This document shows, piece by piece, positions 16,527-40,667 of a stretch of DNA of 64,000 bases. A model generated the notes under the pieces. The model worked only from the letters and a program-made list of their open reading frames with translations. It was not told the origin of the DNA and ran no database searches. How positions within the stretch are numbered: position 1 is the first letter of the stretch; each line of letters opens with the position of its first letter. Origin of the DNA: Gemmatimonadota bacterium. GTDB lineage: Bacteria > Gemmatimonadota > Gemmatimonadetes > Palauibacterales > KS3-K002. The stretch lies in assembly GCA_020344015.1 (NCBI GenBank), contig CP070812.1, positions 4,261,489 to 4,325,488 of the forward strand, given 5' to 3'. The translations under genes were made by a program, and so were the position numbers.

Positions 16527-16534
16527 GGCAGCGA

Positions 16535-17155: not shown

Positions 17156-17258
17156 AGTCTCAGCGCTACCATGAACAACGTGCCTCCATTCTTATTGGAC
17201 GGACAACCACACCTCGTCTTGCAGCGGTCCGTTTCCTACGTCCGGCACACAGGCAGAA

Positions 17259-24184: not shown

Positions 24185-24187
24185 GCC

Positions 24188-24210
24188 ACCATTATATGAT
24201 ATCATAATGT
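24188..24210 (-). promoter_or_regulatory. vapBC promoter/operator: TATAAT -10 box overlapping a 12-bp palindrome
   Basis: On the minus strand, TATGATATCATA is a perfect palindrome at 24195-24206. It is followed by TATAAT (24196..24191) about 7 nt before the MKM start. RHH antitoxins typically bind such palindromes. Confidence 0.4.
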
Positions 24211-24266
24211 AATGATCAAGCTGCTACCCAGAGTGGGAGGCTGGCGGACGCGACCCGAGAAGCTTT

Positions 24267-24968: not shown

Positions 24969-26678
24969 TCACCCGCAGCGGTCGCACCCGGCGCACCGCC
25001 GGTGCGGTAACACTTCCCCGAAGTAGCGGAGCAGGTAGCGACGCCGGCACCCGCCCTGGTACGCGTACGTCTCCATCCGCTTGAGCTTGCGCATCTCCAG
25101 CGCACGCCGTGCGGCGACCCGCTCCCAGTCGACGGGCAATGCGTCGGGATCCAGCTTCAGGTCGGCGGGCACGTAGCCCGACCTGAGACCGTCATCGCGC
25201 CAGCCGATGAGGCCGGCCGCCTGAAGGGCATCGAGGGCGTCACGGGCGGCGCCGAAGTCGCCACCGGTCCAGCGGGCGACTTCGCGACGCGAGATACGCA
25301 GGTGGCGGCGCTCGGCCTGAGCCGAGATCCGGGCCAGGCCTTCGAGCACGGGAATAACGGCGAGGCGTTCTTCCGAGCCGTTGTCGTACTCGAGCAACTC
25401 ACGCACCTGAGCCGAGCTGGCGATCCATCTGATGGTACAGCTGGAGCGGTTCGCGGTGTCTTCGACGGCGCCTGCATCGCGGAGGATGCGTAGCGCCGAG
25501 TAGATCTCGCCCTCGCCCTTGGCGTCTTTGACGCGAGCCGCAAACTGGGCGGGCGTGACGGGACCGCCGGCGGCGCGCACCGCATCGCGAAGCGCGCTGA
25601 ACGTCGCACGCACAATCTTCCGTGGAGGATAGGATGAGCGGATGAAGAACTCGTGGGTGAAGCGATCGCGGTAACTATGCAAGAGGGTGCACTCGGCGGG
25701 CTCGCCGTCGCGGCCGGCGCGGCCCGCCTCCTGATAGTACGCCTCGAGCGATCCCGGCATCTGGAAGTGGATCACCCGGCGAACGTTGTCCTTATCGATC
25801 CCCATGCCGAAAGCGTTGGTGGCGACGACGACCGGCAGGTTCCCGACGGTCCACTCCTCCTGCACCCGGGCGCGGCGCTCGCGCGGCAGCCCGGCATGGT
25901 AGGCGGCGGCATCGATTCCTTCACCTCTCAGTAGTTCGCTCGTAGCCTCGACCACTTTGCGCGTCGATGCGTAGACCACCGCCGTCTCGTCGCCGTTCCC
26001 GAGGGTCGAGATCAGCAGCCCAGCCTTCTCGCTCAGCTTCTCTTCGCGGCGCACGGTCCAGCGCAGGTTGGGACGATCGAAGCCGCGGACGATGACGCGG
26101 GGCTCGCGGAGCCCCAATTCCTCGACGATATCGTCCCGCACCTCGGGCGTCGCCGTGGCGGTCAGCGCCATGAGGCGTGGTCGGCCGATCTCCCGCCATA
26201 CGTCCCGCAGCAGTAGATAGCTGGGCCGGAAATCGTGACCCCACTGAGAAACGCAATGCGCTTCATCGATGGCGACCAGTCCGATTTCCGTCGCGCCCAG
26301 CGCGCGCCGGAAGACGGGACTTCCGAACCGCTCCGGCGCCACGTAGAGCATATCGAGCTCGCCGGCGGCCGCCCGGGCGAGGCGCTCCTCGATCTCGGCG
26401 CTCGACAGCGTGCTGTTGACCAGGGCGGCCCGGATCCCACGGCGTTCCAAGGCGTTCACCTGATCGAGCATTAGGGCGATGAGCGGCGAGACGACGAGGG
26501 TGAGGCCTGGGAGGACGAGGGCGGGGACCTGGAAGCAGAGGGATTTGCCGCCGCCGGTGGGCATGACGATCAACGTGTCGCGACCGCGCAGGATCGACAG
26601 GATCGCCTCACGCTGACCGGGCCGGAAATCGCCGTACCCGAAGTACCGCCGGAGAGCGGAACGTGCCTCTGACCACAT
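24969..26678 (-). CDS. recQ: ATP-dependent DNA helicase RecQ
   Basis: FRPGQREAI, MPTGGGKSLCFQ, DEAHCVSQWGHDFRP, the helicase C-terminal domain, the zinc-binding RQC region and the HRDC-like C-terminus are all present. Length is 569 aa. Confidence 0.95.
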   Translation of the reverse strand: MWSEARSALRRYFGYGDFRPGQREAILSILRGRDTLIVMPTGGGKSLCFQVPALVLPGLTLVVSPLIALMLDQVNALERRGIRAALVNSTLSSAEIEERLARAAAGELDMLYVAPERFGSPVFRRALGATEIGLVAIDEAHCVSQWGHDFRPSYLLLRDVWREIGRPRLMALTATATPEVRDDIVEELGLREPRVIVRGFDRPNLRWTVRREEKLSEKAGLLISTLGNGDETAVVYASTRKVVEATSELLRGEGIDAAAYHAGLPRERRARVQEEWTVGNLPVVVATNAFGMGIDKDNVRRVIHFQMPGSLEAYYQEAGRAGRDGEPAECTLLHSYRDRFTHEFFIRSSYPPRKIVRATFSALRDAVRAAGGPVTPAQFAARVKDAKGEGEIYSALRILRDAGAVEDTANRSSCTIRWIASSAQVRELLEYDNGSEERLAVIPVLEGLARISAQAERRHLRISRREVARWTGGDFGAARDALDALQAAGLIGWRDDGLRSGYVPADLKLDPDALPVDWERVAARRALEMRKLKRMETYAYQGGCRRRYLLRYFGEVLPHRRCAGCDRCG

Positions 26679-26842: not shown

Positions 26843-29074
26843 TCATTTCGCGTGTATCACTATGCTGCCGCCGCCGATCTCCTGGTTGAAGCCGTTGTCG
26901 TAGACGTCGGTCTCAACGCCGGCGGCGTCGTCCTCCTCCCAGATCCGAATCCGGAAGGTGTCCGTGTCTTTGTCACCAGCCCAGATCATGAACTTGTAGT
27001 CGCTCACGCCGTTGATCGTGGCCGATCCCTTTAACAGCGCGTAGTCGCCGCCGGTGCCGGTAACGACCAGCCACTCGTAGTTGATGCTGTGGAGGTTGAG
27101 GCGGGCCAGGTGGAACTGGAACTCCGCCTGGCCGGTCGGTACGTACATGCCCTTCTTGTACTTGGCGACGAAGCCGAAGTTGGCCCTACCCGCCAGCGAC
27201 GGGTCTGGCGCGTACGCTCCTGGGGGCGAGTCGATCCAGCCGCCGCCGGTGACGAAGCCGGCGGTCGGGTCGTAGACGACGACGTACGCGAAGACGGGCG
27301 AGAAGCCCGAGTCGCCGTCGTCGTCGGTCACCGCCAGGCGGATCTTGTACAGCCCCGCCTCGTTATAGGTGTGGCTGTCGGTCACCGAGCCGGAGCCCGC
27401 ACCCTGGGTCACGGTTCCTGCCTCGCCGATTCCGGCGGGCCAGTCCCAAACCCATTCGGCCGTGTGGGTGTCCAGCGTACCAGGATCGGTGAAACCGGCC
27501 GATACGGTGATCGGCGTGCCCACCGAGACAAGGGTTAGCGGCGCAGCGATCGTGCCCACCGTCGGGGCGACGTTGCTGATGGTCGCGGCCGCGGTGGCCG
27601 AGTTTGACTGGCCGTCGTCGTCGGTCACTGTCAGCGTGACCATGTATACACCGTCGTCCGCATAGGAATGTTCCGGGGTCGCGCCGCTGCCCGTTTCGCC
27701 ATCGCCAAAATCCCAAAAGAAGCTCACGATGCTGCCGTCGGGATCGGCCGATCCGCTGCCATCGAACATCACGGGCGCGCCCTCATCGCCCGCATAGGGT
27801 CCGCCGGCGTCGGCGACCGGAGGCACAGTTGCCGGGGGCGTAGGCACCACCACCCCGCTCAGCACGACCCGCGCGGTAAGTAGTGATGAGTGGCGGCAGC
27901 AGTCGTCCACATGAGTGATGAGGATAGTGTTCACCTCGCCCCGGACCACGTAGTCCTGTAGATCGGCCGTACCTTCACCGCCCAGGTACACATAGCTGCC
28001 GGGCACGACGAGCCCCTCGGGGTACTGGGAGTTGTAGATCGACACGCGTATCCCGTCGTCCACTCCCGAAGTGACGATTCTGAACTCGGTAAGCCAGGTG
28101 TCCGCCGGAATATCAACGTACGTTCGGAAGTAGGTGAAGTCGCCACCGGTTAGGCAATCACATACGCCACAGACAGTGGAGGGGATCTGGAAGTTTACGA
28201 CTTCGGGATCGGGTGCCGGTCCCCAGCCGGGATCGCCAGGTGACGGTATCGTCGCGTAGTCGTACTCCAGCGGATCCCCGTGTTGTGGCGATTCGAACCC
28301 CCATTGGACGATCCCCTCTCCGTAGTGCATCTCCCACGGCGTTCGGGTGGGCGGTGGGCCAGCCGGTGGGGTGAAGGCGATGTCGTCCATCACCCACCAG
28401 CAGGTATCTCCAACGTTACAAGTCCTCCGGAACACCACCCGGTCGACGGTATCTTCGAAATCGGCCGATAGCCACTGCATGGTCGAGGTCAACGTCAGAT
28501 GACCCGACTCACCGACCTTCGTCGTCCCGTTGTATCCCTCGAACCAGAATTCGTCGGCGTAGATATACTGTGACGGAGGCTTGCCCACCCACGCACCGGC
28601 GAAGGTCACAGGCTGTTCGACGGTAATTTGCTCGCTGTCACGGCCACCGGCGTTGAACAGGAACACCTGACCAGAATGGGGATTCCCGTACGAAACACTG
28701 TTCCAGTGGTAGATACCAAACGTCCCCTGCGCACCAGCCGAAAAGGTGAACCCCAGGTACGGGTTGTGCACGGCCATGGTGTGGTAGCCATCGCCCCAAT
28801 CGGTAAGGTCCTCGAAATCGAGGACTATCGCGCCAGCGGGGACCGAACTTGCACTGACGGCGGCTGCAACCGCTTCCTGCAGCCTTAGAGCTTCCAGCGC
28901 CGCCAGCTCTTCCGGAGTTGTGCCGGTTAGTTCGAAAAAGCTGACCTCGGAGGTCTCAGAGAGGGCCACTCCGCTCGGCGGGCCGGTAAGGTCGCCCAAC
29001 TCATCACGACAGCCCGTCACCAGCAGAATACCGATCAGGCCGATCGACAGAGAACGTGTAAGCGTCTTCTTCAC
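26843..29074 (-). CDS. PKD-domain lipoprotein (two PKD domains)
   Basis: GTG start follows GGAAGGGAAAG. Lipobox is ILLVTGCRD. PKD motifs are WDFGDGETGSGATPEHSYADDGVYMVTLTVTDDDG and HTYNEAGLYKIRLAVTDDDG. Confidence 0.8.
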   Translation of the reverse strand: MKKTLTRSLSIGLIGILLVTGCRDELGDLTGPPSGVALSETSEVSFFELTGTTPEELAALEALRLQEAVAAAVSASSVPAGAIVLDFEDLTDWGDGYHTMAVHNPYLGFTFSAGAQGTFGIYHWNSVSYGNPHSGQVFLFNAGGRDSEQITVEQPVTFAGAWVGKPPSQYIYADEFWFEGYNGTTKVGESGHLTLTSTMQWLSADFEDTVDRVVFRRTCNVGDTCWWVMDDIAFTPPAGPPPTRTPWEMHYGEGIVQWGFESPQHGDPLEYDYATIPSPGDPGWGPAPDPEVVNFQIPSTVCGVCDCLTGGDFTYFRTYVDIPADTWLTEFRIVTSGVDDGIRVSIYNSQYPEGLVVPGSYVYLGGEGTADLQDYVVRGEVNTILITHVDDCCRHSSLLTARVVLSGVVVPTPPATVPPVADAGGPYAGDEGAPVMFDGSGSADPDGSIVSFFWDFGDGETGSGATPEHSYADDGVYMVTLTVTDDDGQSNSATAAATISNVAPTVGTIAAPLTLVSVGTPITVSAGFTDPGTLDTHTAEWVWDWPAGIGEAGTVTQGAGSGSVTDSHTYNEAGLYKIRLAVTDDDGDSGFSPVFAYVVVYDPTAGFVTGGGWIDSPPGAYAPDPSLAGRANFGFVAKYKKGMYVPTGQAEFQFHLARLNLHSINYEWLVVTGTGGDYALLKGSATINGVSDYKFMIWAGDKDTDTFRIRIWEEDDAAGVETDVYDNGFNQEIGGGSIVIHAK

Positions 29075-29401
29075 TGTACTTTCCCTTCCACAGCACGAGT
29101 ACGGACCTCGACAGCCCCCCGCCTGCAACGCGACCGTTGAAGGTGTTTGGCCGCTTTTTTGCCGGCACAGGGACCTCTTGTGAGAACCGCTAATGCTTCA
29201 GAGCGGGAGAACGTTGCGGCCCGTCTGGAGGGAGGGTCCAGAGGCGTCAACCACCGGACGCCATGTTTCTGCAAATAGTACTGAGGCTAGTTACAGGTGC
29301 CGCCACCTGGACTACAGGGTTGTACCCTAGCGCCGACGCAAAGTTCGATGGCAAAACGCGCCTGCGGCCGCACCGGGAGAGCTTCGCCGGCGTGGGTTCG
29401 G

Positions 29402-31696
29402 TCAACGCGGCGGTGGCCGCAAAACGAGCCGGTGGGCCGCGTTCGCCTCCACCGCCTCGCGGGTGAACAAGAGCGGGAAGTAACGGCCCTCAGCCCAGAG
29501 TGGCAGCAGGTCGCCGTAATGAGGGCCACCCGGCTGGCCGGACTGGCCGGGCGTGCTGGTAGCGACGGAGCGGTCCCAGTCGGCGAGGTCGATGATCTCG
29601 CGGAACGAGGCGCCGCTCGAGCGGCCGGCGACGTTCACCGTGGTCCTATCGCCGCTACGCCCCACCGCGGGAAGCTCGAAGGCCGGAATACCCAGCGGAT
29701 GGGGGAACTGTATTTCGTTCATCGGACCCCAGCGCCAGGCCGTCCAATCGGTCCCCTGCTCCGCCTCGAGCCGGCCCACCGCCGCCGCCAGAGCGAGCTC
29801 GACCAGCGAGTCGCGCAGCGCACCCGGCGTCGCTTCCCGCAGCGCGCGACCGTCCAGCGTATCGCGCCAGGCGTGATAGAGCGCTGCGGCCGGGCTATCG
29901 CGATCGATCTCGGCGTCCCATTCCACCAGCATCCGCCGCGCCCGCTCGGTGGCGTCCGTCGTGGCCGTCCACGTCTGAAGAGTCGCGCAAGCTCTGGCCG
30001 CGGCGGATGAGTAGACGTCGAGTTGCAGCCGCTGGTAGTCCTCGACGTCGAAGTCGCCGCCCGCCGACAGCACATCGACGATCCGCAGATATCGCCGCGG
30101 CGAAGCCCAATCGAAACCGAGCGGTGGCTCGTAGCCCTCGGGCATGATGTTGTGGTTCGCCGTGGCGATGAACCCGCGGGCCGGGTTGTACTCGCGTGGC
30201 AGCCGCTCGAGCGGCAGAAAGCCGCGCCACTCGTACTCACCGGTCCCGGGGACCGGCAGCCGCCCGTACCAGCCATCTCTCACCGGAGTCAGGCCCGCCG
30301 CCTGCCAGCCGATGTTCCCGTCGACGTCGGCGTAGATCATGTTCTCCGACGGGACCTTCCAGGCCTTCATCGCCTCGAGGTACTCGTTCCAGTTCCGCGC
30401 CTGGTCGACGCGCAGCGAGCCCAGGTAGCCCGCCGTCCCCGGCTCGGCGAGCACCGAGCGGAAGGCGTAGGCGCGATGGATCACCGTGTCCTCGTAGAGG
30501 ATCGGGCCGTGGCGGCTGAACTTGAGCTCGACGACGCGTGGGTCCTCTCCTTTCACTCGGATCGTGTCGAACTCCACCCGCAGCGGCTCCCAACTACCGT
30601 TCCAGCGCACTTCGTTTCTGTTCTGAGGATTCACCTCCTCGACCACTATGTCCTGCTGGTCGATTCCGACGATCGTCAGCCCCCAGGCGATCCGCTCGTT
30701 GTGGCCGATAGCGACTCCGGGCAAGGCGGGCTCGCCGGATCCGATCACGTTCCAGCCCGGGCCGTTGAGGTGCACCAGGTAGCGCAGCGAGGGGACTATG
30801 ATCGAGCGGTGCGGGTCGTTGGCGAGGATCGGCGCCCCCGTGGCCGTGAGCCGCCCGGCCACGACCCAGTTGTTGCTGCCCGCGTCGCCCCGTCCCGCAG
30901 GGGACGCCGCGGCAGGCGACCGGTAGGGTTCGACGAGCGGCGGCCGGGGCATCCCGGCGTAGGCCGCCCCTATGATCTCGAGCACGGTATCCGGGAGGGC
31001 TCCGACGTCGAGTCCCTCGGGCACCCGGAGCTCCTGCCACGGATCGGGCGCGTCACGCCGGTTCGCCTCCTCGACCCCTACCTGCCCGACCCGCAAGGCG
31101 AGCCGCATCTCGCCGAGGGCGTTGTCGGTCATCGGCAGGCCCGCCATCCGGAGGAGCGGCACCTCAACGGACCAGGGCTCAGGCTGAATCCCGGTCAGCT
31201 TGAACTCGACGGGTGGGTTCTCCCGGCTATGTTCGATGAACGCGTTCACGCCCCTCACGAACGACGTGATGATCCGCTCCCCGTCCGGGTGGTAGCTGGT
31301 CCACTCCGCCTCCATGTCGCCACGGTAGCGTAAGAGCCGCGCCACCCGATCGCGCTCGAACGCCCCCGGCCCAACGATCTCGGCGACCCGCCCCTCGCCG
31401 ACGCGCCGCCACATCTCCAGCTGCCACAGCCGGTCCTGGGCGGCGACGAACCCCTGGGCAAAGAACAGGTCGTCCACCGTCTGCGCGTAGATGTGGGGCA
31501 CGCCCCAGCGGTCGCGCAGGACCTCCACCTCCTGCTCCAGACCGGCGATCGCGATCGTCCCCTCGATCTGAGCCAGGGCCTCCCGGGCCATCTCTTCGAG
31601 ATGCTCTTGATCGACAGGGCCGGGCGTGCAGAAGGAAACCGCCCAGGCGAGGGCGAGGACGGGTAGCGTGTGAGACCATCGTGTGTGTTCAGACAT
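29402..31696 (-). CDS. penicillin acylase family protein (Ntn-hydrolase, peptidase S45)
   Basis: Signal is MSEHTRWSHTLPVLALAWAVS. GSNNWVVAGRLTATGAPILANDPH is the beta-subunit N-terminal Ser nucleophile motif. Start taken at aa 39 of the track ORF. Confidence 0.88.
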   Translation of the reverse strand: MSEHTRWSHTLPVLALAWAVSFCTPGPVDQEHLEEMAREALAQIEGTIAIAGLEQEVEVLRDRWGVPHIYAQTVDDLFFAQGFVAAQDRLWQLEMWRRVGEGRVAEIVGPGAFERDRVARLLRYRGDMEAEWTSYHPDGERIITSFVRGVNAFIEHSRENPPVEFKLTGIQPEPWSVEVPLLRMAGLPMTDNALGEMRLALRVGQVGVEEANRRDAPDPWQELRVPEGLDVGALPDTVLEIIGAAYAGMPRPPLVEPYRSPAAASPAGRGDAGSNNWVVAGRLTATGAPILANDPHRSIIVPSLRYLVHLNGPGWNVIGSGEPALPGVAIGHNERIAWGLTIVGIDQQDIVVEEVNPQNRNEVRWNGSWEPLRVEFDTIRVKGEDPRVVELKFSRHGPILYEDTVIHRAYAFRSVLAEPGTAGYLGSLRVDQARNWNEYLEAMKAWKVPSENMIYADVDGNIGWQAAGLTPVRDGWYGRLPVPGTGEYEWRGFLPLERLPREYNPARGFIATANHNIMPEGYEPPLGFDWASPRRYLRIVDVLSAGGDFDVEDYQRLQLDVYSSAAARACATLQTWTATTDATERARRMLVEWDAEIDRDSPAAALYHAWRDTLDGRALREATPGALRDSLVELALAAAVGRLEAEQGTDWTAWRWGPMNEIQFPHPLGIPAFELPAVGRSGDRTTVNVAGRSSGASFREIIDLADWDRSVATSTPGQSGQPGGPHYGDLLPLWAEGRYFPLLFTREAVEANAAHRLVLRPPPR

Positions 31697-31710
31697 CAGC
31701 GCCCCTGTAG

Positions 31711-31895
31711 CCGGTGGCCGGTAGGTCGGTGGTCGGTAATGGCCAATCGCGGGATGGGAATCGGAAACTACCGGCACACCGGCCCACTGGCCACCGGCTA
31801 CCGTTCGCACCGGCTACCGTTCCCACCGGCCCACCGGCTACAGGCTACCGTTCCCACCGCCTCACCGACCACCGACCACCGCCCACCGGCACCAT
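31711..31895. repeat. structured repeat block in divergent promoter (inverted arms plus 16-bp direct repeats)
   Basis: Left arm CCGGTGGCCGGTAGGTCGGTGGTCGGTA (31711-31738) pairs with right arm CACCGACCACCGACCACCGCCCACCGG (31863-31890). Between them are CACCGGCTACCGTTC(G/C) x2 plus CACCGGCTACAGGCTACCGTTCC with a 16-bp period (31792-31854). The ORF-track ORFs here (TGYRSHRLPF repeats) are artefacts of the repeats. Confidence 0.6.
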
Positions 31896-32054
31896 GGCAC
31901 CTGCAAGACCAACTGGTGTAAGAAGAAGCGGCCGTGCTCGGTGGGCTCAAAGCGGCCGCCGCTCCCCCTCCGGACGGCGTCCTCCAGGCGCTGGAAACCC
32001 TTATTAGAAGCGGGACAAGGTGTAATTGACAGTCCGTGCACGTAGTCCCTAACA

Positions 32055-32768
32055 TTGTGGGCGTACGGCTATACTGACCTTCCCCGCACAGGAGTAGGAC
32101 CACTGGGCGCACAGTCCAACGGTGCAGCGCTCATCGGGCAGTTCTACGCGGAGCGGAACCGGGTGTATCCCCTCCGGGCGCCTGTGATGTCGGTCGGCCG
32201 TGCTAATGCCAACACGCTGAGGATTCGCGATTCGCGGATCGCCGCCCACCACGTCCGCATAGAACGCGATGGTGGCCAGTTCGTCCTCGCGGTGACGGCG
32301 GACGACGCTCCGACCACGCTCAACGGCTCGGAGTTGCGGTCGGGCGACCGCCGGACCCTGACAGAAGGGGACCTGATCGGGCTAGCCGACCTCGTGTTCC
32401 GATTCACCGACGATCACGGGGACGGGGTGCTCGGCCGCTTATGGGTCGTGGCTGGTGTCCACCGGGGCAAGGTGTTCCGTATCGATCGGCCGGACTACGC
32501 GATTGGCCGCGCCACAGACAACGACGTCCAGTTCCCCGATCGTTCCGTGTCCAGGCATCACTGCCGGATCCATAAGAACGACCAGGCCTGGTGGATCGAA
32601 GATCTGGAGAGCACCAACGGTACGATACTGCACGGGGCGCCGCTGCAGGCGCCGGTGCGACTCGAGCATGGAGATGAGATAGCAACCGGGTTCTCGAGAT
32701 TCGTTTTCCAGGACGGAGATCGACCGCTCGTGAGCCTCAGATTGGAGCCTACGCCGCCGTGCAACTGA
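32055..32768 (+). CDS. dual FHA-domain protein
   Basis: Two FHA cores are present: VMSVGRANANTLRIRDSRIAAHHVRIERDGGQFVLAVTADDAPTTLNGSEL and YAIGRATDNDVQFPDRSVSRHHCRIHKNDQAWWIEDLESTNGTILHGAPL. Start is uncertain: TTG at 32055, with AGGAG at 32090. Confidence 0.75.
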   Translation: MWAYGYTDLPRTGVGPLGAQSNGAALIGQFYAERNRVYPLRAPVMSVGRANANTLRIRDSRIAAHHVRIERDGGQFVLAVTADDAPTTLNGSELRSGDRRTLTEGDLIGLADLVFRFTDDHGDGVLGRLWVVAGVHRGKVFRIDRPDYAIGRATDNDVQFPDRSVSRHHCRIHKNDQAWWIEDLESTNGTILHGAPLQAPVRLEHGDEIATGFSRFVFQDGDRPLVSLRLEPTPPCN

Positions 32769-35710
32769 ATCACCGTCTGTACACCGAGCGAGGTCACGCG
32801 AGAGGGCTGATTATCTGGGCCGTCGCCCTCGCGTCCGTCGTCCTCTTCGCCGCGAACGGCTACGCCCAGGCCGTTCCCAAGGCAGCCTACGTGCCCGAGG
32901 GCTCGTTCCAGCTACCCGGTAGAGGGCAGCCCGGCACGCCCGACCAGCCCGTCGCGCTGGCGCTGGGCCACGACCGAACCATTCACATCGCCGACGGCCG
33001 CGGCTTGGTCTTCGTCTTCGACTCGAGCGGCGTCTACCGTCGGAGCTACGGCGACGAACTGGATGAGCCGGTGGCGATCGGGATTACCTCGGAGGGCGAA
33101 TCCTACGTGCTCGATGGCGATCAGAACGGGGTGTACGTGTTCGGTCCCGGCGGCCAATACCTGCGCTTCATCGGAGGCAAGGGCAACAGAGGCGGCCAGC
33201 TGTCCGACCCGGTAGATCTAGCTCTGGGTCCCTGCGGGCAAGTCTACGTCCTCGACGCCGGCAGGAGAGCCGTGCACGTGTTCAGCCGGGACGGCCTCTT
33301 CGTCCGCACGGTCAGCCTGGGGATGGCGCTCACTCAGCCGCTGTCGTTGGCGGTGGGGAACGACGGCCGGATATTCGTCGCCGACGCACGGACCCCGACC
33401 AATATCTTCGCCCTGCCTCCGTTCACCCAGGTACCCTGGGTCGGAGCGACGCCCCGCGGCCTGGCCGGCACCGTGACCTTCCGCGGCGCCGAATTAGAGG
33501 AGCCCGTCGCCACGGCAGTTAACGACCTGGGGAGTGTCGTCGTCCTCGACAAGGAAGCCGGCCGCCTGTACCGGGCCAACGGCGACCAGGTGATCGGACC
33601 CACCGACCTGCTGTACGGCGGCGCGGGTACGGGGCGCGGGTCGTTCCGCGAAGCTGTAGACATCGCCTTCGCAGGCTCCGACGAGCTGCTGATCCTCGAC
33701 CGCAGGCTGCGCAAGGTGGAGAGGATTCGCCTCACAACTGAGGAGGGGTTGCCACCGCGAATCGCGATGGACTTCCCGATCCGGGTCAGCCAGGTGCCGA
33801 CCAGCCTCGCTTCGCAGTTGCTCGACATCGGTTACGCGCCCGACGGTACTCCCCGCTTTCTGGTGGAGACCGAGGACCGGAGCCTCACCATGCACACGGC
33901 AATGGCCCAGCTCCACGAGACGGTCTACGGCGATAGCGTGAACATGTACAGGCCCGACCCTGAGGGCGGGTCGCGCCTGTTCAGCGGCGATATCGGCCGG
34001 GTCGAACAGGCCGCGATCACCGATACCTCGGTCATCGCCGCCGACTCGCGGCGCAATCGCTTCGCCGTCTTCGACCTCGAGAGCGGAGAGCTGACCGGCA
34101 CGTACGGCGACAACTACCAGGACAACCGCAAGCTCAGGGATCCGAAAGGTGTGGGAGTCCTGGCCGATGGCCGCATCGTCATCGCCGATACGGGCAACGA
34201 TCAGGTCAAGATCTTCAGCCCTGACCTGGCGAGCCTCGTTGCCAGCTTCACGTTCAATGATCCGGCGGGCGTAGCGATCGACCCAGACGGCGAGATCTTC
34301 ATCTGGGACGAGAGCGGCGCCCAGGTCGCCCGACTCGACGCCGCCGCGCAGACCTTCGAGCCTCTGCCGGGCGGGTTCCTGCCCGGCCCGGTCGCCGCCA
34401 TCACCTTCGACCAGGCGGGCAATCTCTTCGCCCTCCACCGCGCCACGCACCGAATCACGATCATCACGGCCGGCCTGACGGGAGTGATGATCCAGCTGGG
34501 CGCGGAAGGCGCTTTCGGTAATCCGACGACGCTCAACGTCGATCGCGACGGGAATATCTATATTACCGACGAACGTTCTAAGCGGACCGCGATCTACCGT
34601 TGGGACGTAGTGTTCCCCCCGCTGGCCGGATTCGATGTCGACTTCCAGCCCAACGTGGCGGTGCTGAGCTGGCAGTCGGGTCCTTCAGGCTTCATCCGTG
34701 GGTACGAGATCCAGGGTGCCGACGCGCCGAACGGGCCTTACAGCGGCCTGTTCGTCACGGCCGCGTCGCCATTCCGCATCACCGCCGATAATGTCCCGGA
34801 AAGGCCGCCGCGCTACATCCGGGTGGCCCCCGTCTTCATCACCGGCGTCCGGGGCCGCGCGTCGAATCCGCTGCCGCTAGCCTACTTCGCTGCGAACAGA
34901 GCCTATGCGGACCAGGACTACACCACAGCGCTGCAGGACGTCGCTGAGGCGGACCGACTGATCGAGCGCGGCGTGATCGAGGCCAGCAGCGAGGCCCACG
35001 GGCGGCTGTTGTTCATCGCCACCGCCAGCAGCTACGCCCAAGGCGACTTTCGCACGGCTGTGGATTGGGGACAGAAGGCAGCGCCTCACGTCGACGCGAT
35101 GCCCCGGGAACAGAGGATACAGTTCCACTTCATCGTTGCGGAAACCTTCATGCGGCTCGGCGACCCGCGCTCGGCGAGTCAGCATGTCCTGGCGCTGGTC
35201 GGCCAGGGGCCGCGCCCGGAGTACTACGAAGACCAGTCGGTGGTCGATCAGTCGTTCCGAGTCTATAGGGGCGTCCGCGACGCCGGCTACTCCGAAGACG
35301 CGCTCGAGTACCTGCGCCTCTACTGGCAGTCGATCCCGGAGAGCGTCGAGTACCTGAAGAACCAGTACGCAGACTCGGTGATCGTCTTCTCGACGCGTCA
35401 GGTGCTCGGACCCGGGTTCCAGTTCTGGAGAGAGGCGGACTACGGGCGCGTGGTCGGGTTTTTCGAGAATCTGCTGGCGGAGGGCGGCTTGCACGGCGAG
35501 CAGACGGTGGTCGGGCGGCAGGTGTTGGCGTGCGCCTACTTCGCCTACGGTGATCGCGTCAGAGCCGAGGACACATTCCGCGAGATCTTCGGAATTAGGT
35601 CCGACTTCAACCTCGACCGCGAGATCCCGCGGCTTCTGCAGCTGTATGGTCTGCGGATATACAACCCGGAGACACAGCGTTTCTTCGGGGCTCTGAGACC
35701 CGGGTCGTAG
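32759..35710 (+). CDS. secreted NHL-repeat beta-propeller protein with C-terminal helical domain
   Basis: Signal is LIIWAVALASVVLFAANGYAQA. NHL-type blades recur, e.g. DPVDLALGPCGQVYVLDAGRRAVHVF, DPKGVGVLADGRIVIADTGNDQVKIF and NPTTLNVDRDGNIYITDERSKRTAIY. It overlaps the FHA gene by 10 nt. Confidence 0.8.
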   Translation: MQLNHRLYTERGHARGLIIWAVALASVVLFAANGYAQAVPKAAYVPEGSFQLPGRGQPGTPDQPVALALGHDRTIHIADGRGLVFVFDSSGVYRRSYGDELDEPVAIGITSEGESYVLDGDQNGVYVFGPGGQYLRFIGGKGNRGGQLSDPVDLALGPCGQVYVLDAGRRAVHVFSRDGLFVRTVSLGMALTQPLSLAVGNDGRIFVADARTPTNIFALPPFTQVPWVGATPRGLAGTVTFRGAELEEPVATAVNDLGSVVVLDKEAGRLYRANGDQVIGPTDLLYGGAGTGRGSFREAVDIAFAGSDELLILDRRLRKVERIRLTTEEGLPPRIAMDFPIRVSQVPTSLASQLLDIGYAPDGTPRFLVETEDRSLTMHTAMAQLHETVYGDSVNMYRPDPEGGSRLFSGDIGRVEQAAITDTSVIAADSRRNRFAVFDLESGELTGTYGDNYQDNRKLRDPKGVGVLADGRIVIADTGNDQVKIFSPDLASLVASFTFNDPAGVAIDPDGEIFIWDESGAQVARLDAAAQTFEPLPGGFLPGPVAAITFDQAGNLFALHRATHRITIITAGLTGVMIQLGAEGAFGNPTTLNVDRDGNIYITDERSKRTAIYRWDVVFPPLAGFDVDFQPNVAVLSWQSGPSGFIRGYEIQGADAPNGPYSGLFVTAASPFRITADNVPERPPRYIRVAPVFITGVRGRASNPLPLAYFAANRAYADQDYTTALQDVAEADRLIERGVIEASSEAHGRLLFIATASSYAQGDFRTAVDWGQKAAPHVDAMPREQRIQFHFIVAETFMRLGDPRSASQHVLALVGQGPRPEYYEDQSVVDQSFRVYRGVRDAGYSEDALEYLRLYWQSIPESVEYLKNQYADSVIVFSTRQVLGPGFQFWREADYGRVVGFFENLLAEGGLHGEQTVVGRQVLACAYFAYGDRVRAEDTFREIFGIRSDFNLDREIPRLLQLYGLRIYNPETQRFFGALRPGS

Positions 35711-35764
35711 AAACATGGCAAGGGGGCCACGCTGAAGAAGAAGGACTTATTCCTAGGCCGTCGG

Positions 35765-38053
35765 GTGGCGGTCTACCGGATCGACAAGTTCCTCGGTGAG
35801 GGCGGCTTCGCCTATGTCTATAGGGCGCGGGACACGAACCTCGACATCGACGTAGCGCTCAAGATCCTCAAGCCTGCCTTCGCCTACGACGAGGTGTTCG
35901 AAGAGAACTTCCGGCGCGAAGCACACCGGGCGGCGAAGTTCCGTCACCCCAACGTCATCGCCATCCACTATGCCGGCAAGGACGACGACATTGTCTTCTT
36001 CTCCATGGACCTGCTGGAGACCGGCCTCAAGGATCTCATGACCCCGGGCAAGCCGATGGAGGAGGGCGCCATCATCAAGGTCGGGTTGGACGTCGCCTCC
36101 GCCCTGCAGTTCGCCCACACCCACGAAGGCGGAATAGTCCACCGCGACCTGAAGCCCGACAACATCCTCTTCGACCGTCACGGCAATGCCGTCGTGACCG
36201 ACTTCGGGATCGCCGAAGCAGCGACGAACTACACGGCGGCGACCGGTACGACGGTCTACGTCGGAACCCCGAAATACATGTCGCCGGAGCAGGCGCGTGG
36301 CCATCGCGTCGACCACCGCTCCGACATCTACTCGTTGGGCGTAACCCTCTACGAGATGGCCACCGGCGAGGCGCCGTTCACCGGGCGCGACTGGTTCGAG
36401 TTGGGCCGCAAGCACATCGAGGAACTCCCCTCACTGCCACGTGAAAAGAACACCGATCTCGATCCGGATCTCGAGCGCATCATCCTCAAGTGCCTGCAAA
36501 AGAACCCGGCCGATCGGTACCAGAGCGCCGAACACCTCAAGTCCGAGCTGTCGAGGCTGGAAGGCGCGACGCAGCGAACCGTCGTGCTCACCGTACAGAA
36601 GACCGAGGAGGAGAAGACCCCGACACCGGTGACGCCGGCTCCGTCGGTGGCGGCGGCACAGGAGTCGGAGGCTCGCGAGGTACAGCGCAGCCCGGCCGAT
36701 CTCTACGAGGCGACGACGCAGCCGCCGAAAAAGCGGAGCCGCGCCTGGCTGTGGCTGACCGCGGCGGCCGTGCTGATCGGCACCGTCGCTTCCTACGCCA
36801 CAGACCTCGCCGGCTTCCGCACTTTCGGCGAGGAGAAAATGCCGTTCCTCGCTAACCTGCCGCTCATCGGCTCCGGCGGCGTCTACGTTACGAGCTTCTA
36901 CTACGCCGCCGTGGAGGGCGGAGCCGATGTCGAGAATGCGACGTTCGACATCAGGTTCAGCGCACCCGTCGATCCGGTGACCGCCAGCTCGGAGAACGTC
37001 AAGCTCCTCGGCCCCAATTCGCGCGCCCTGCCTGCCGAGGTCGAGGTAAAGGAGGGCGGCGCGCGGATCACGGTCCTGCCAAGCCTCCGTCTGCGCTACA
37101 ACACCCGGTACGAGATCCAGATCGGCGAAGGGCTGCTGAGCCAGAAGGGAACGCCGATAAGGCAGAACGCGCGCGCGGCGCAGCCGGGTGCCGTCTTCTC
37201 GTTCAACACACGCCTGCCACCGCCCGATACGGAGCGCCCGACCCTGGCGGAGAGCACGCCGGCCAAGAACGCCCGCAACGTCCAGACTGGCGCTACAATT
37301 ACACTCGGCTTCAGCGAGCAGCTCGAGCCCTCGACGGTGAATTCCGGGACGGTGCTATTGCGCGACGCGCGGGGGATACAGCAGGAGATCAACTTGCTCA
37401 CGGGCGACGGCGGACGGACGGTTGAGATCAGACCGATGTCTCAGCTGAGCGCCGGTGCCAGCTACACGGTGGTCCTAACCAACGAGGTCAGGGACCCGAC
37501 GGGTAACAGGCTGGTCCCCGATAGCATCGTCTTCGAGACGAGAGCCGCCACGCCGACACCGGTTGTCCCGGTTGACCCGGGCACCGTCACCGTGAACGTG
37601 ATGCCGCCCGAGGCGCGGGGCTTCGTGAAGGTGTTCATAGACAACGAGGACATGGGATACGTGCCGAAGCTCGGACTGGAAGTCGAGGCACGCAGCCAGC
37701 ACAACCTGAGGTTGGTCGGCGCCCCGCCTTACTCCGCCTTCTCGTTCACGGTCTATCGCGAGGCCTTCACACTCGCTCCGGGTCAGCACCGAGAGATCGT
37801 TCCTGAAATTCAGCCGTTCGGCTGGATCACCGTGACGACTGCCAGCGACGCCCCTGCGGCCGATGTGTTCATCGACGGCGAGTATGTTTCCTCCACACCG
37901 CTTGCGGGTTACACTTTACCCTCTGGACCGCACTCGCTGGAATTGCACCCGAGCGAGGAAGACCTTCAGCGTTACGGGGTGTACACAGCTAATTTCACGG
38001 TCCCGAGGTTCGGTGAGGAGAGGCTCACCAATCTGAGACTGCCCGCCAAGTGA
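35765..38053 (+). CDS. Hanks-type Ser/Thr protein kinase with TM helix, extracellular Ig-like domains and C-terminal PEGA domain
   Basis: Kinase subdomains I, II, VIb, VII and VIII are LGEGGFAYVY, VALK, HRDLKPDNIL, DFG and GTPKYMSPE. TM is AWLWLTAAAVLIGTV. SbsA-like Ig repeats follow. PEGA-like VFIDGEYVSSTPLAGYTLPSGPHSLEL is C-terminal. GTG start. Confidence 0.9.
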   Translation: MAVYRIDKFLGEGGFAYVYRARDTNLDIDVALKILKPAFAYDEVFEENFRREAHRAAKFRHPNVIAIHYAGKDDDIVFFSMDLLETGLKDLMTPGKPMEEGAIIKVGLDVASALQFAHTHEGGIVHRDLKPDNILFDRHGNAVVTDFGIAEAATNYTAATGTTVYVGTPKYMSPEQARGHRVDHRSDIYSLGVTLYEMATGEAPFTGRDWFELGRKHIEELPSLPREKNTDLDPDLERIILKCLQKNPADRYQSAEHLKSELSRLEGATQRTVVLTVQKTEEEKTPTPVTPAPSVAAAQESEAREVQRSPADLYEATTQPPKKRSRAWLWLTAAAVLIGTVASYATDLAGFRTFGEEKMPFLANLPLIGSGGVYVTSFYYAAVEGGADVENATFDIRFSAPVDPVTASSENVKLLGPNSRALPAEVEVKEGGARITVLPSLRLRYNTRYEIQIGEGLLSQKGTPIRQNARAAQPGAVFSFNTRLPPPDTERPTLAESTPAKNARNVQTGATITLGFSEQLEPSTVNSGTVLLRDARGIQQEINLLTGDGGRTVEIRPMSQLSAGASYTVVLTNEVRDPTGNRLVPDSIVFETRAATPTPVVPVDPGTVTVNVMPPEARGFVKVFIDNEDMGYVPKLGLEVEARSQHNLRLVGAPPYSAFSFTVYREAFTLAPGQHREIVPEIQPFGWITVTTASDAPAADVFIDGEYVSSTPLAGYTLPSGPHSLELHPSEEDLQRYGVYTANFTVPRFGEERLTNLRLPAK

Positions 38054-38071
38054 GGGGAGGACCCGGCGCGA

Positions 38072-39661
38072 ATGGATCTAGTCCTCGTTGTCCGTGAAGG
38101 CGCGCAAGTTGGGCGCGTTTTCACCGTCTCACGGGGCGATCGCAAGACGATCGGCCGCGCGCCCGAATGCGATATCCGCCTGCCCGACCAGGGCGTCTCG
38201 CGCCGCCACTGCACAATCGAAAACGTGGGTGCCGTGCTCCGGGTCGTCGACCTGGAGTCGGCGAACGGCAGCTTCATCAACGGGCAGCTGGTGGAACGCG
38301 GCTCGCTGGGGCCCGGCGACCAGCTGGCGGTGGGCCCGACGATCCTCGAGTGCCGGGCGCGGCCGACCGCCCCGGACAGAGCACCCGGCGAGGCGACGCT
38401 CGCCTATCGCGAGGAGGGTACCACGACCGTGGTCCGCAAGGTCGTGGACACCCAGTACACGGGCATGGAGGCGCTGGCCGCCGCTGGAAAGCCCGAGGAT
38501 CTGGACGACCTGCAGCGCGCTCAGCGCAACCTGGCCACCGCCTATCAGGTCTCCAAGATGCTGGCCAACGCCCCCAGACTGGAAAAGCTACTCGACGAGG
38601 TCATCGACTCGATCTTCGCCGCCATCAACGCTGATCGCGCTGCCCTCTTGCTCCACGACGCCAGCGACGGATCGAACGAGCTCAGAATCGTGGCATCGCG
38701 TTCGCGCACCGGCGAGGAAAGCGACCTGGACGAGATTAGCGTAAGCCGGACAGTGGTACAGGACGTGCTCGAGAACGCCGCGTCCTCACTGAGCCGTGAC
38801 GCCAGCGCCGACGCCCGTTACAAAGCCGGGGAGAGCATCATCCAGCAGAAGATCCGCTCGGTGATGTGCGCGCCGGTCTCCACCGACGACAGCGTGATTG
38901 GCGTCCTATACGCCGACAGCCGGAGCCTCACCGGCGCCTTTGCGGAGAGCGACCTCGAGCTGCTGGCTTTGATCGGCAACCAGGCCGGCGTGGCCATCCA
39001 CCGGGCCCAGTTGCTCGCCCAACTCGAGAAGTTCTTCTTCGACACGATCCGCGCGATCGTAGCGACGATCGACGCGAAGGACGGCTACACGCACCGCCAC
39101 TCGGAGCGCGTGGCACGCTTCGCTGCCAAAATCGCTAACGAGCTAGGCAGAAGCGAGGAGGAGATCGAGGTCGTCAAGCTCTCCGCCCTCCTGCACGACG
39201 TCGGCAAGGTCGGCGTGCCCGAGGCCATCCTCAACAAACCGGGCAAGCTGACCAAGGAAGAGTTCGACGAGATCAAGAAGCACCCGGTACACGGTGTGAA
39301 CATACTGGGCCACATCGAGAGCCCCCGCTTCAAGGAGATCCTCCCCGGCGTGCGGCACCATCACGAAAAGTGGGACGGCTCGGGCTACCCGGACGGTCTC
39401 TCCGGCGAAACCATACCATTCCTCGGCCGCCTGCTCGCCGTGGCCGACGTGCTCGACGCTCTGAGCTCCGACCGCTCGTACCGCAAGGGCCTAGGCTTCG
39501 ATAAGTCTGTGGAAATCATCCGGCAGGATGCCGGTAGCCACTTCGATCCCGATGTCGCCGCAGCGGCTGCGGAGCTGCACTCGCGTGGTGAACTGGAAGT
39601 GTTGCCCGAGTGGATCGAGCCCGATTCGGAACCCATGCCCACGACGACCCTGGACCCTTAG
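38072..39661 (+). CDS. FHA-GAF-HD-GYP protein (predicted c-di-GMP phosphodiesterase with phosphothreonine-binding input)
   Basis: FHA is IGRAPECDIRLPDQGVSRRHCTIENVGAVLRVVDLESANGSFING. The GAF region has LLLHD...VMCAPV. HD-GYP has LLHDVGKVGVPEAIL...HHHEKWDGSGYPDGL. Confidence 0.9.
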   Translation: MDLVLVVREGAQVGRVFTVSRGDRKTIGRAPECDIRLPDQGVSRRHCTIENVGAVLRVVDLESANGSFINGQLVERGSLGPGDQLAVGPTILECRARPTAPDRAPGEATLAYREEGTTTVVRKVVDTQYTGMEALAAAGKPEDLDDLQRAQRNLATAYQVSKMLANAPRLEKLLDEVIDSIFAAINADRAALLLHDASDGSNELRIVASRSRTGEESDLDEISVSRTVVQDVLENAASSLSRDASADARYKAGESIIQQKIRSVMCAPVSTDDSVIGVLYADSRSLTGAFAESDLELLALIGNQAGVAIHRAQLLAQLEKFFFDTIRAIVATIDAKDGYTHRHSERVARFAAKIANELGRSEEEIEVVKLSALLHDVGKVGVPEAILNKPGKLTKEEFDEIKKHPVHGVNILGHIESPRFKEILPGVRHHHEKWDGSGYPDGLSGETIPFLGRLLAVADVLDALSSDRSYRKGLGFDKSVEIIRQDAGSHFDPDVAAAAAELHSRGELEVLPEWIEPDSEPMPTTTLDP

Positions 39662-39869
39662 TCACGCCGGAGCCAACGCGAGCCCGGCAGATGGCGTACC
39701 AGGCTGTTCAACCGCTGGCCCAGCGTCTGACCCGGGCGAGCGGGTATGGCGAGTGCGATAATCAGCAACGCCAGCCCCACGTAGAAAAGCCAGCGCTGGC
39801 CCAAGCGATCGGCAGACAGCGCCAGCGGCGCGCCTACGAGTATCAGGGCCAGCTTCAAGCGAAGGTGGA

Positions 39870-40667
39870 TCAGTCACCTCCTTTGCCGCGTCTCGATTCC
39901 AGGAAACGTCGCACGCCCTCGCGATAGTCCTCGGTCAACCTGGCTAGAGCGTTCACCTCGGCGCCCGCCCGGATCGCCGCTTCGAACGAGTGCCGCTCCG
40001 TCTGATAGATCAGCCGCTTCGATAGCGCCAGCGCACTCGCACTGCGCCCGGCCAGTTCCTCGGTGAACTCGCGGCTCTTATCCTCGAACGAATCGGTCGA
40101 GTAGATGTGATGGACGAGGCCGTAGCGCTCCGCAGTATCCGCGTCAATGATCCGGCCGGTAACCACCAGCTCGAAGGCCCGTTTTTCGCCGACCGCGCGC
40201 CGCAGCATAGCGATCACCATCGCCGGCAGGAAGCCGATCTTCACTTCGGGGTAACCGAACCGCGCGTCTGAGGCCGCGAGAACGATGTCACACGCGGTGG
40301 CAAGCCCACAGCCGCCAGCCACCGCATGCCCCCGCACCGCCGCCACGACCGGCAGCTCGATCCTCCGCAAGATCAGGAACAGATCGCCCAGCGCATCCGC
40401 ATCATCGATCTGCTCTTCCACCCCCGCCTCCATCATCTCCGACAATGCCTCGAGATCGGCACCGGCACAGAAGTCCTTTCCCTCACCACGCAAGAGGATC
40501 GCTCTCACCTGCTCGTCCGCGTCGGCCCACGCCAGCGCATCCGATAGCTCATCGACCAGCTCGGAGCTCAACGCGTTTCGCTTCTCCGGCCGGTTCAGGC
40601 TGATCGTCGCAACCCCCGTCGACTCATCGATGTCGACCGTGATCGTGCTGTAGCTCTCTTCGTACAT
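39870..40667 (-). CDS. enoyl-CoA hydratase/isomerase (crotonase family)
   Basis: ISLNRPEKRNALS, FCAGADL and VAAVRGHAVAGGCGLATACDIVLA give the oxyanion hole and the catalytic Glu region. Confidence 0.9.
   Translation of the reverse strand: MYEESYSTITVDIDESTGVATISLNRPEKRNALSSELVDELSDALAWADADEQVRAILLRGEGKDFCAGADLEALSEMMEAGVEEQIDDADALGDLFLILRRIELPVVAAVRGHAVAGGCGLATACDIVLAASDARFGYPEVKIGFLPAMVIAMLRRAVGEKRAFELVVTGRIIDADTAERYGLVHHIYSTDSFEDKSREFTEELAGRSASALALSKRLIYQTERHSFEAAIRAGAEVNALARLTEDYREGVRRFLESRRGKGGD

Follow-up and report, generated by a model that had tools for sequence, protein, structure and literature searches.

A stretch of 64,000 nucleotides (nt) from a Gemmatimonadota genome (contig CP070812.1), called the window throughout, carries four consecutive + strand genes whose products are, in order, a dual-FHA protein, an exported NHL-TPR protein, a Hanks-type kinase with a Big_5/PEGA ectodomain and an FHA-GAF-HD-GYP protein. 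We consider it probable, if well short of certain, that these genes constitute a conserved Gemmatimonadota operon for transmembrane signalling by Ser/Thr phosphorylation, with hydrolysis of cyclic di-GMP (c-di-GMP) as its output.

Gene order and conservation of the block

In the list of open reading frames (ORFs) on which an earlier note on this DNA was based, the four genes occupy 32055-32768, 32759-35710, 35765-38053 and 38072-39661 (gene 1 as delimited there), and the spacings of −10, 54 and 18 nt which that note gave for the three junctions agree exactly with the list. The G+C content of the window is 64%. The products of genes 2, 3 and 4 are identical to UCC82925.1, UCC82926.1 and UCC82927.1, which carry the public labels ‘NHL repeat-containing protein’, ‘protein kinase’ and ‘HD domain-containing protein’, respectively; NCBIfam supplies an equivalog-level name for none of the four proteins. 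Every domain call of the earlier note was borne out by the Pfam search that it had recommended.

Relatives were found through the neighbourhoods of gene 4 homologues and through a metagenome scan seeded with the NHL alignment. The identical four-gene order is present in 13 of the 13 loci with an NHL identity of at least 53% and enough flank, namely the window and twelve others from Gemmatimonadota (L081, L082, L090, L094-L100, L102 and L104), and five shorter contigs are consistent with the block as far as their sequence extends. The distance from the kinase stop to the phosphodiesterase start is 17-23 nt in all 13, and genes 1 and 2 overlap by 10 nt in both L081 and L082 but by 1 nt in L090. 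Since the four genes recur in this order at twelve further loci, the arrangement is not due to chance. The upstream neighbours vary, being RecQ in L081 and L090, a LytTR two-component system in L082, and a penicillin amidase with a PKD protein in the window, so that the block is kept in differing surroundings. The ECH/AtuA operon downstream of it, on the opposite strand, is as conserved as the block, and part of the conservation of the block is therefore clade-level synteny.

The common strand, the short gaps, the conserved order and spacing, and a consensus scan of 31500-40000 that found no sigma-70-like match between the four genes together support the view that they behave as a single conserved unit, and we infer that they would be co-transcribed.

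The four encoded proteins and their relatives

Gene 3 (35765-38053, + strand) encodes a receptor Hanks-type Ser/Thr kinase of 762 amino acids (aa), as judged by Pfam, motifs and hydropathy. Its Pfam matches are Pkinase (E-value 2.1e-50, profile positions 1-260 of 263), two Big_5 domains (1.6e-28) and PEGA (3.1e-05). The kinase domain spans residues 1-270, with the motifs GEGGFAYV, ALK31, HRDLKPDN126, DFG146 and SPE173 intact. One hydrophobic segment, at residues 327-345, follows the sequence KKRSR, and the protein is therefore predicted to be a single-pass kinase with its N-terminus inside and an ectodomain of residues ~346-762. The Thr-rich activation loop is invariant among the orthologues; the juxtamembrane region contains QRTVVL (270) and EATTQ (315), and YEATTQPPKKR is retained in 13 of 14 orthologues. 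An assignment to the PASTA-type PknB/Stk1 kinases (NCBIfam NF033483) was rejected, since the score of 325 bits lies under the cut-off of 450 and covers the kinase and juxtamembrane part only, and since the ectodomain is of Big_5/PEGA instead of PASTA type. The kinase domain also gives a sub-threshold NCBIfam match to PknD.

Gene 4 (38072-39661, + strand, ATG start, 529 aa) was analysed with Pfam, AlphaFold2, phmmer and Foldseek. Its ATG, with GGGGAGGA located 5′ of it, stands 18 nt past the kinase stop. Pfam identifies FHA (2.1e-17), GAF (1.3e-14) and HD_5 (1.8e-40) domains, the last with 138.9 bits against a cut-off of 27.2 and over profile positions 6-170 of 170. In the AlphaFold2 model (predicted local distance difference test score, pLDDT, 88) the chain is divided into FHA (1-97), a disordered linker (100-117), a short strand (120-123), GAF (~144-312), a long helix (292-336) and HD-GYP (~320-504). 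By hydropathy neither this protein nor the product of gene 1 has a hydrophobic segment, and both are therefore taken to be cytoplasmic.

The FHA domain of gene 4 retains all of GR, SxxH and NG, the motif definition following PMC1262709. Among 112 homologous sequences G28, R29 and S43 are invariant, and R44, H46, N65 and G66 are conserved in at least 90%. The residues for binding phosphothreonine (pThr) are thus canonical and conserved, and the FHA call made earlier stands. The nearest solved folds are GarA and OdhI, with a root-mean-square deviation of 1.3-1.8 Å by Foldseek, and the domain resembles that of DgcB too. In the HD-GYP part, the dyad LH375D376VGK and the stretch H430H431E432KWD435GSGYP440 are both present and are invariant or conserved in at least 90% of the same sequences; invariant are H343, H375, D376, H404, H430, H431, E432, G436, G438, Y439, P440 and D459. 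The earlier identification as an HD-GYP protein therefore holds on alignment, where its catalytic motifs prove to be intact. Among solved structures the best relative is PmGH (PDB 4mcw; phmmer E-value 2e-52 over residues 149-495; Foldseek target TM-score 0.78), and further fold matches are PA4781 and the c-di-GMP-bound HD-GYP protein DvhD (target TM-score 0.84). The trinuclear site of PmGH has eight metal ligands, the residue numbering of which fits the sequence alignment; seven of them (H189, H221, D222, H250, H276, H277 and D305) correspond to H343, H375, D376, H404, H430, H431 and D459 of gene 4. A role of the GAF domain as a sensor of cyclic nucleotide monophosphates, which would fit the cyclase variants described below, is unsupported: the N-K of the GAF signature NKFDE is replaced by A281-D282, both of which are conserved.

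Gene 2 (32759-35710, + strand, GTG start) encodes an exported NHL-TPR protein of 983 aa, according to the Pfam NHL match, AlphaFold2, Foldseek and hydropathy. This start and the gene 1 stop overlap by 10 nt, with GGAG 11 nt 5′ of the GTG. Near the N-terminus a hydrophobic segment (residues 12-36; a signal or anchor helix) is followed by AQA|VP, from which export is predicted. The NHL match has an E-value of 5.4e-25, and the AlphaFold2 model (pLDDT 89.5), all-beta over residues 42-617, shows within 42-617 two NHL beta-propellers and an inserted beta region, followed by a beta-sandwich (626-693) and, towards the C-terminus, a TPR-like alpha-solenoid (708-977). A single propeller matches the NHL domain of TRIM71 (Foldseek target TM-score 0.82; 0.79-0.83 for TRIM71 and Thin NHL), and the model thus points to an NHL-repeat beta-propeller protein. 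The whole chain resembles, at low TM-score, propeller-solenoid coat proteins and the periplasmic sensors, likewise with two propellers, that occur in hybrid two-component systems of Bacteroides.

Outside the clade of the 13 loci, this protein keeps its partner while the partner changes its cytoplasmic part. In L093, where the NHL protein has 45% identity, the dual-FHA, NHL and kinase genes are retained and the phosphodiesterase gene is not there; a small Guanylate_cyc-FHA protein (class III cyclase, 21022-21921) is encoded 5.4 kb from the kinase. A second group of NHL-TPR proteins is of ~1120 aa and 34-39% identity, the homologues in L092 and L174 having 34-37%. In L092 such a gene overlaps by 4 nt a gene for a Guanylate_cyc-transmembrane-Big_5x2 protein (13393-15309), whose ectodomain is homologous to residues 380-762 of the gene 3 product (32%, E-value 3e-45). 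L174 and L175 likewise have NHL-TPR followed by a cyclase with the same ectodomain (30% over ~400 aa, E-value about 1e-49); a GGDEF-PilZ gene lies 31 nt 3′ of the cyclase in L174 (9439-13134), and the contig of L175 ends within the cyclase gene. In L106 and L107 a PEGA-only ORF of 178 aa comes directly after the NHL-TPR gene. NHL-TPR therefore travels with the Big_5/PEGA ectodomain while the cytoplasmic transmitter is swapped between a kinase and a class III cyclase. This pairing despite the exchange of the transmitter is the strongest evidence here for one periplasmic sensing unit, and the suggestion of the earlier note that the NHL protein senses with or through the kinase gains support from the fact that NHL-TPR always precedes a Big_5/PEGA or PEGA protein. 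A homology search with the kinase ectodomain returned six proteins, five linked to a kinase and one without a kinase domain; the cyclase swap was seen through the neighbours of the NHL genes.

Gene 1 (32103-32768, + strand, CTG start), identified by Pfam, comparison of starts across loci and hydropathy, encodes a protein of 221 aa with two FHA stretches (Pfam, E-value 3.6e-33). The second, FHA2, is canonical (GR, SRHH and STNG), and its sequence IGRATDNDVQFPDRSVSRHHC...STNGT is nearly invariant in 14 orthologues.

The earlier note had called a direct FHA-HD-GYP fusion inside a kinase operon uncommon, a view that finds no support, since the fusion is not rare. The best 120 of the clusters listed at 90% identity for the gene 4 product, from Gemmatimonadota and Acidobacteriota (Vicinamibacterales, Thermoanaerobaculia), all have FHA, GAF and HD_5, down to 49% identity. 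When residues 1-320 were compared by HMMER with 1.84 billion representatives at 50% identity, 410 matches had an E-value of at most 1e-30; among the best 150 of these 410, 81 were full-length (470-1000 aa) with an N-terminal FHA-GAF. The output was HD_5 (HD-GYP) in 46 of the 81 representatives, HATPase_c in 12, SpoIIE in 10, Guanylate_cyc in 9, Sigma54_activat in 2 and GGDEF in 1. Judged by domain composition, FHA-GAF is an input module that is portable, with HD-GYP as the output found most often. A scan of genome contigs with the gene 4 alignment was dominated by generic HD-GYP patterns (HHE[KR]WDG[ST], DAKDGYTH); among the matches listed, only L073 (Oligoflexales) was a true FHA-GAF-HD-GYP, and the close Gemmatimonadota relatives were not among them. 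The ten SpoIIE clusters (P0317, P0331, P0362, P0372, P0376, P0378, P0385, P0398, P0420 and P0421) come from other metagenomes; the combination of FHA-GAF with a SpoIIE/PP2C-type phosphatase would put a pThr reader on a Ser/Thr phosphatase. No paper on an FHA-HD-GYP protein came up in the literature searches, nor one that deals with c-di-GMP in Gemmatimonadota.

Start of the operon and flanking genes

The only sigma-70-like match in 31500-40000 is a promoter-like element at 32026-32055 (+ strand), found by consensus scan and alignment, in which TTGACA and TAACAT are separated by an 18-nt spacer and 10 of 12 consensus positions agree. In an alignment of the window with L081, L090 and L082, the −35 box ATTGAC is invariant and the −10 box is conserved. 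The earlier note had instead supposed that the operon was fed by a repeat-rich divergent promoter at 31.7-32.0 kb. The repeat-rich stretch itself was confirmed at 31703-31897, where a CCACCGGCTACCGTTC-type unit recurs in four direct copies and nine inverted pairs are present. It forms a palindromic element of ~200 nt (31697-31903) made of CCACCGGCTACCG-type units. The window has this element once, and it folds into one long hairpin (−55 kcal/mol, z = −4.1). As the promoter or operator of the operon it is ruled out by the comparison with relatives, the homologous intergenic region of which has no such repeat in the alignment, and by a copy of the same motif family elsewhere, at an unrelated intergenic site of L094 (about 1260-1340). 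On this comparison the repeat is a dispersed, lineage-specific element adjoining the penicillin amidase start, and its copy at an unrelated site of a related genome makes it look like a dispersed repeat of the repetitive extragenic palindromic (REP) or miniature inverted-repeat transposable element (MITE) kind.

The start of gene 1 also differs from that given earlier. The TTG at 32055, taken as its first codon in the earlier note, overlaps the end of the −10 box described above. A Shine-Dalgarno sequence AGGAG (32089-32093, + strand) lies 9 nt 5′ of a CTG at 32103; it is invariant in the four-way alignment and has equal spacing in further loci. At the position nine codons before the conserved LIGQFYAERN, the start codon is CTG in ten loci including the window (the others being L081, L082, L094, L096, L098, L099, L101, L104 and L108), ATG in L090 and GTG in L103 and L105, while L093 has a GTG eight codons before LIGQFY; each homologous start is preceded by an AGGAG-like Shine-Dalgarno sequence. 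In-frame stops occur upstream of the start in L099 (TAG, five codons 5′) and in L082 (TAA). The overlap with the −10 box, the comparison of starts and Shine-Dalgarno sequences and these stops rule out TTG 32055, and the start is therefore placed at CTG 32103; a non-canonical start codon, CTG (32103-32105), thus seems to be conserved in the dual-FHA gene. Public gene calls took a downstream GTG or ATG, by which FHA1 is truncated.

The non-coding sequence at 31900-32020, 5′ of the −35 box, is conserved in the window and in L081 and accompanies the operon, not the upstream gene; a role as operator or regulatory site is possible. At gathering thresholds Rfam has no match in the whole window, this interval included. 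RecQ is the divergent upstream neighbour of the operon in L081 and L090; in the window, the − strand genes for the PKD-domain protein (26843-29128) and penicillin amidase (29402-31810, probable ATG near 31697) separate RecQ (24969-26678) from the operon. The pair is a two-gene insertion or rearrangement with the repeat element at its border.

Convergent to gene 4 is a 66-aa ORF (39658-39858, − strand) with two hydrophobic stretches and no Pfam match. By tblastn (E-value <1e-7) it is found at 59-80% identity downstream of the phosphodiesterase gene in 13 related contigs examined, and it is probably the last gene of the − strand ECH/AtuA operon. Two further HD-type genes lie in the window. A second HD_5 protein of 503 aa (60559-62070, − strand) has HDVGK and a degenerate HHMRTDFTGYP, in which the Glu and DG are lost; by its motifs it is a divergent member of the HD-GYP family. 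On the − strand at 51432-55194, a phoH-like gene, a gene for a 7TMR-HDED/7TM-HD receptor with an HD domain, and ybeY stand in a row; the domain set of the receptor is presumably that of a PgpH-type c-di-AMP phosphodiesterase. Unrelated to the operon are, within 13623-18047 (− strand), a gene for a 967-aa CHAT-TPR protein beside a zf-HC2 anti-sigma-like gene and a weak, sub-threshold match to sigma-70 region 2 (extracytoplasmic-function-sigma-like), and the PIN-domain and MazF/PemK toxin genes at 23508-24611 (− strand).

Proposed signalling path, alternatives and meaning

We propose that the two-propeller NHL-TPR protein and the Big_5/PEGA ectodomain would act as a two-part periplasmic sensor, for which a glycan or an envelope component is a plausible ligand, and that occupancy of the sensor would alter the activity of the kinase. 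The kinase would autophosphorylate its Thr-rich activation loop and juxtamembrane region, and perhaps phosphorylate its partners too. The resulting pThr marks would be read by the dual-FHA adaptor and by the FHA-GAF-HD-GYP phosphodiesterase, both encoded in the operon, and binding of pThr by FHA would either recruit the phosphodiesterase to the kinase or rearrange its FHA, GAF and HD-GYP domains, so that its activity and with it the c-di-GMP level would change. The protein-protein contacts, the phosphosites, the sign of regulation and the substrate are proposed from anatomy, gene association and precedent, and the chain from kinase through pThr and FHA to the phosphodiesterase is likewise put forward by analogy. 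The main precedent is DgcB, in which binding of a pThr peptide to FHA activates a GGDEF enzyme (PMC6733907), and a further one is PknD, a kinase whose sensor is an NHL propeller (PMC1262709). Two recurrent associations also favour the model: FHA-GAF-HD-GYP orthologues stand beside other propeller-associated kinases in L091 (WD40) and in L084 and L085 (PD40), and in L174 the GGDEF-PilZ gene ties the cyclase variant of the sensor to c-di-GMP.

Several observations weigh against this reading. Three weak patterns resembling terminators turned up within genes 2 and 3 on the + strand in the consensus scan, at an overall frequency (8 found, 4.2 expected from shuffling) that is little above expectation. 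Pfam scans of the window, which covered the ORFs of at least 200 aa judged coding by a crude gene call based on GC3 and the gaps left between them, gave no match to a PP2C or SpoIIE phosphatase, in agreement with the statement of the earlier note that no cognate PP2C is present; nor was PP2C found in the flanks of L081, L082, L090 and L093, so that the locus lacks the reset step. In gene 1, FHA1 retains GR and NG, but 13 of 14 orthologues have Ala (IAAHH) where SxxH has Ser, and in L093 the Arg is lost rather than the Ser. The earlier description of this protein as dual-FHA is thus right as to the two folds and as to FHA2, but FHA1 is without the phosphate-binding Ser, and it is doubtful that this FHA fold binds phosphate canonically. 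Among orthologues, the kinase motif QRT*VVL varies between T, S and P at its Thr. In four of the six neighbourhoods of more distant FHA-GAF-HD-GYP orthologues (identity of at most 62%) there is no kinase nearby (L086-L089), so the phosphodiesterase does not need a linked kinase. In L084 and L085, ORFs for a Pkinase fragment and PD40 lie directly upstream of the FHA-GAF-HD-GYP gene, and an overlapping FG-GAP gene lies downstream of it; the kinase fragment carries a frameshift and could be either a pseudogene or the result of an assembly error. The eighth ligand of PmGH, the third-metal residue E185, aligns with the invariant Y339, as in V-cGAP3, which suggests a binuclear site or a differing third-metal site. 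Finally, the second-best solved match in sequence is V-cGAP3 itself (PDB 5z7c), a phosphodiesterase of cyclic GMP-AMP (cGAMP), which makes c-di-GMP a presumptive substrate, and a candidate phosphosite of gene 4, residue 119, is Ser in 23 of 121 sequences (19%).

This residue is central to a variant of the model, not exclusive of it, in which the phosphodiesterase is itself a substrate of the kinase and the linker Thr (the T119 motif) binds its own FHA domain, in cis or across a dimer, so as to move GAF and HD-GYP in the manner of GarA, OdhI or DgcB. We regard such an intramolecular switch as rather unlikely, if worth keeping in view. The motif, E114-E-G-T-T-T119-V-V-R-K-V-V-D-T, is conserved ([T/S]119 in 111 of 121 sequences, R122 in 113, K/R123 in 119 and D/E126 in 116), it lies in the disordered linker beside the strand predicted by AlphaFold2 at 120-123, and it resembles ETTSVFR, the phosphosite of GarA and OdhI, which are the nearest solved folds to this FHA domain. 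FHA domains, however, are specific for pThr and discriminate against phosphoserine, and besides the sequences with Ser a few have M, P, Q or R at residue 119; Arg stands at +3, where a hydrophobic or acidic residue is usually preferred, and the motif could instead be a structural strand docking on a neighbouring domain. The frequency of Ser weakens the linker Thr as an obligatory cis ligand, and it survives as a rival only. DgcB does use a pThr tail derived from itself (PMC6733907).

It is improbable, in our view, that the four genes are mere neighbours, with the FHA domain of the phosphodiesterase reading other pThr marks and with the adjacency reflecting shared regulation or inheritance within the clade. 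The distant orthologues without an adjacent kinase, the trio of L093 without the phosphodiesterase and the equally conserved ECH/AtuA synteny would all fit such a view. Against it stand the gap of 17-23 nt in every one of the 13 loci, the retention of the block amid changing upstream neighbours, and independent pairings with a kinase in L091, where a divergent WD40-Pkinase fusion lies near the FHA-GAF-HD-GYP gene, and in L084.

We give a similarly low probability to an output other than c-di-GMP hydrolysis, be it hydrolysis of 3′3′-cGAMP or another nucleotide, a reaction that stops at pGpG, or a role in binding or as a scaffold. The rank of V-cGAP3 among the solved matches speaks for this, as do the Tyr which the two proteins share at the position of PmGH E185 (DAKDGYTHRH here and DAKSPYTAGH in V-cGAP3) and the result that the Pfam scans of the window ORFs gave no match to GGDEF, EAL or PilZ. 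The best match, however, is the c-di-GMP phosphodiesterase PmGH, and it spans both GAF and HD-GYP; c-di-GMP-bound DvhD matches as well, all the HD and GYP motif residues are invariant, and a GGDEF-PilZ gene follows the cyclase variant of the sensor in L174. Least probable of all is control of the envelope or of secretion by the kinase, the FHA proteins and the NHL protein, in the manner of FhaA/FhaB-PknB or PpkA-Fha1-TagR and with the phosphodiesterase as a side branch: the best NCBIfam matches of gene 1 are FhaB/FipA and the type VI secretion system (T6SS) protein TagH, both far below cut-off, L093 has no phosphodiesterase, and the periplasmic accessory gene upstream of the kinase recalls TagR/PpkA, but the block and its flanks contain no genes for the cell wall, division or secretion in any locus, and the phosphodiesterase is the sole enzymatic output encoded in the operon.

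The proposed phosphorylation path to c-di-GMP hydrolysis combines known kinds of system, namely FHA-gated c-di-GMP enzymes and Hanks receptor kinases with propeller sensors. Enzymes of c-di-GMP metabolism are mostly known to be under control by phosphorylation of REC domains in two-component systems, by domains that sense small molecules, or by light. In RpfC/RpfG and other REC-HD-GYP systems a membrane sensor kinase encoded nearby controls HD-GYP by phosphorylation, as proposed here, but through His-Asp phosphotransfer to REC, whereas Ser/Thr phosphorylation would be read by FHA in the present case. The H1-T6SS of Pseudomonas aeruginosa (TagR, PpkA, Fha1 and PppA) also has a periplasmic accessory protein, a receptor Hanks kinase and an FHA reader; its output, however, is assembly of the secretion apparatus, and its cluster encodes the PP2C phosphatase PppA, where none is found here. 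In the actinobacterial GarA and OdhI, with PknB or PknG, a pThr-FHA switch controls an enzyme, and these proteins are also the nearest to the gene 4 FHA domain in sequence; they are stand-alone FHA proteins that inhibit metabolic enzymes in trans, while FHA is fused to the enzyme here. PmGH (PDB 4MCW), from Persephonella marina, shares the GAF and HD-GYP core of gene 4, but it has no FHA domain and no known kinase input, and it differs in E185 (Y339 in gene 4) and in the NK of its NKFDE-like signature (A281-D282).

PknD (Mbk) of Mycobacterium tuberculosis is, like gene 3, a Hanks receptor kinase associated with an extracytoplasmic NHL propeller sensor (PMC1262709). Its one six-bladed propeller is fused to the kinase, whereas two propellers and a TPR solenoid form a separate exported protein here; the kinase of gene 3 carries Big_5/PEGA instead, and PknD has no c-di-GMP output. 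Another likeness is to DgcB (Bd0742) of Bdellovibrio bacteriovorus (PDB 6HBZ, 6HC0 and 6HC1; PMC6733907), in which an N-terminal FHA domain gates a c-di-GMP enzyme through a pThr peptide; the FHA fold matches that of gene 4 (target TM-score 0.83-0.86), and an upstream Ser/Thr kinase has been postulated. DgcB makes c-di-GMP, however, whereas the gene 4 product should degrade it, and it is without a GAF domain. The ligand of DgcB comes from its own N-terminal tail, and the kinase has been neither identified nor linked to it (PMC6733907), in contrast to the kinase, adaptor and periplasmic partner that are encoded in the operon.

More tentatively, and with less than even confidence, we suggest that NHL-TPR with Big_5/PEGA is an undescribed modular periplasmic sensor of Gemmatimonadota, the transmitter of which is exchanged between kinase and cyclase with both feeding into c-di-GMP turnover, and that FHA-GAF is a widespread, unrecognised input module for pThr. 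If this were true, the kinase version would act on c-di-GMP through FHA-GAF-HD-GYP and the cyclase version alongside GGDEF-PilZ, and FHA-GAF would serve Ser/Thr kinases as REC serves two-component systems; the survey of its outputs suggests a general input module linking Hanks kinases to many outputs. The swap of kinase for cyclase on one ectodomain is a natural experiment, which points to NHL-TPR and the ectodomain as the sensing unit.

In the literature searched, DgcB is the only characterised link between Ser/Thr phosphorylation and c-di-GMP, and it lies on the side of synthesis. The operon would be the complementary case on the side of degradation, with the periplasmic co-sensor, receptor kinase, FHA adaptor and phosphodiesterase encoded together. 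Since all the presumed components are in one operon, the pathway could be reconstituted from four genes, and it would give a first access to signalling in Gemmatimonadota, soil bacteria of a phylum that is common yet has received little study.

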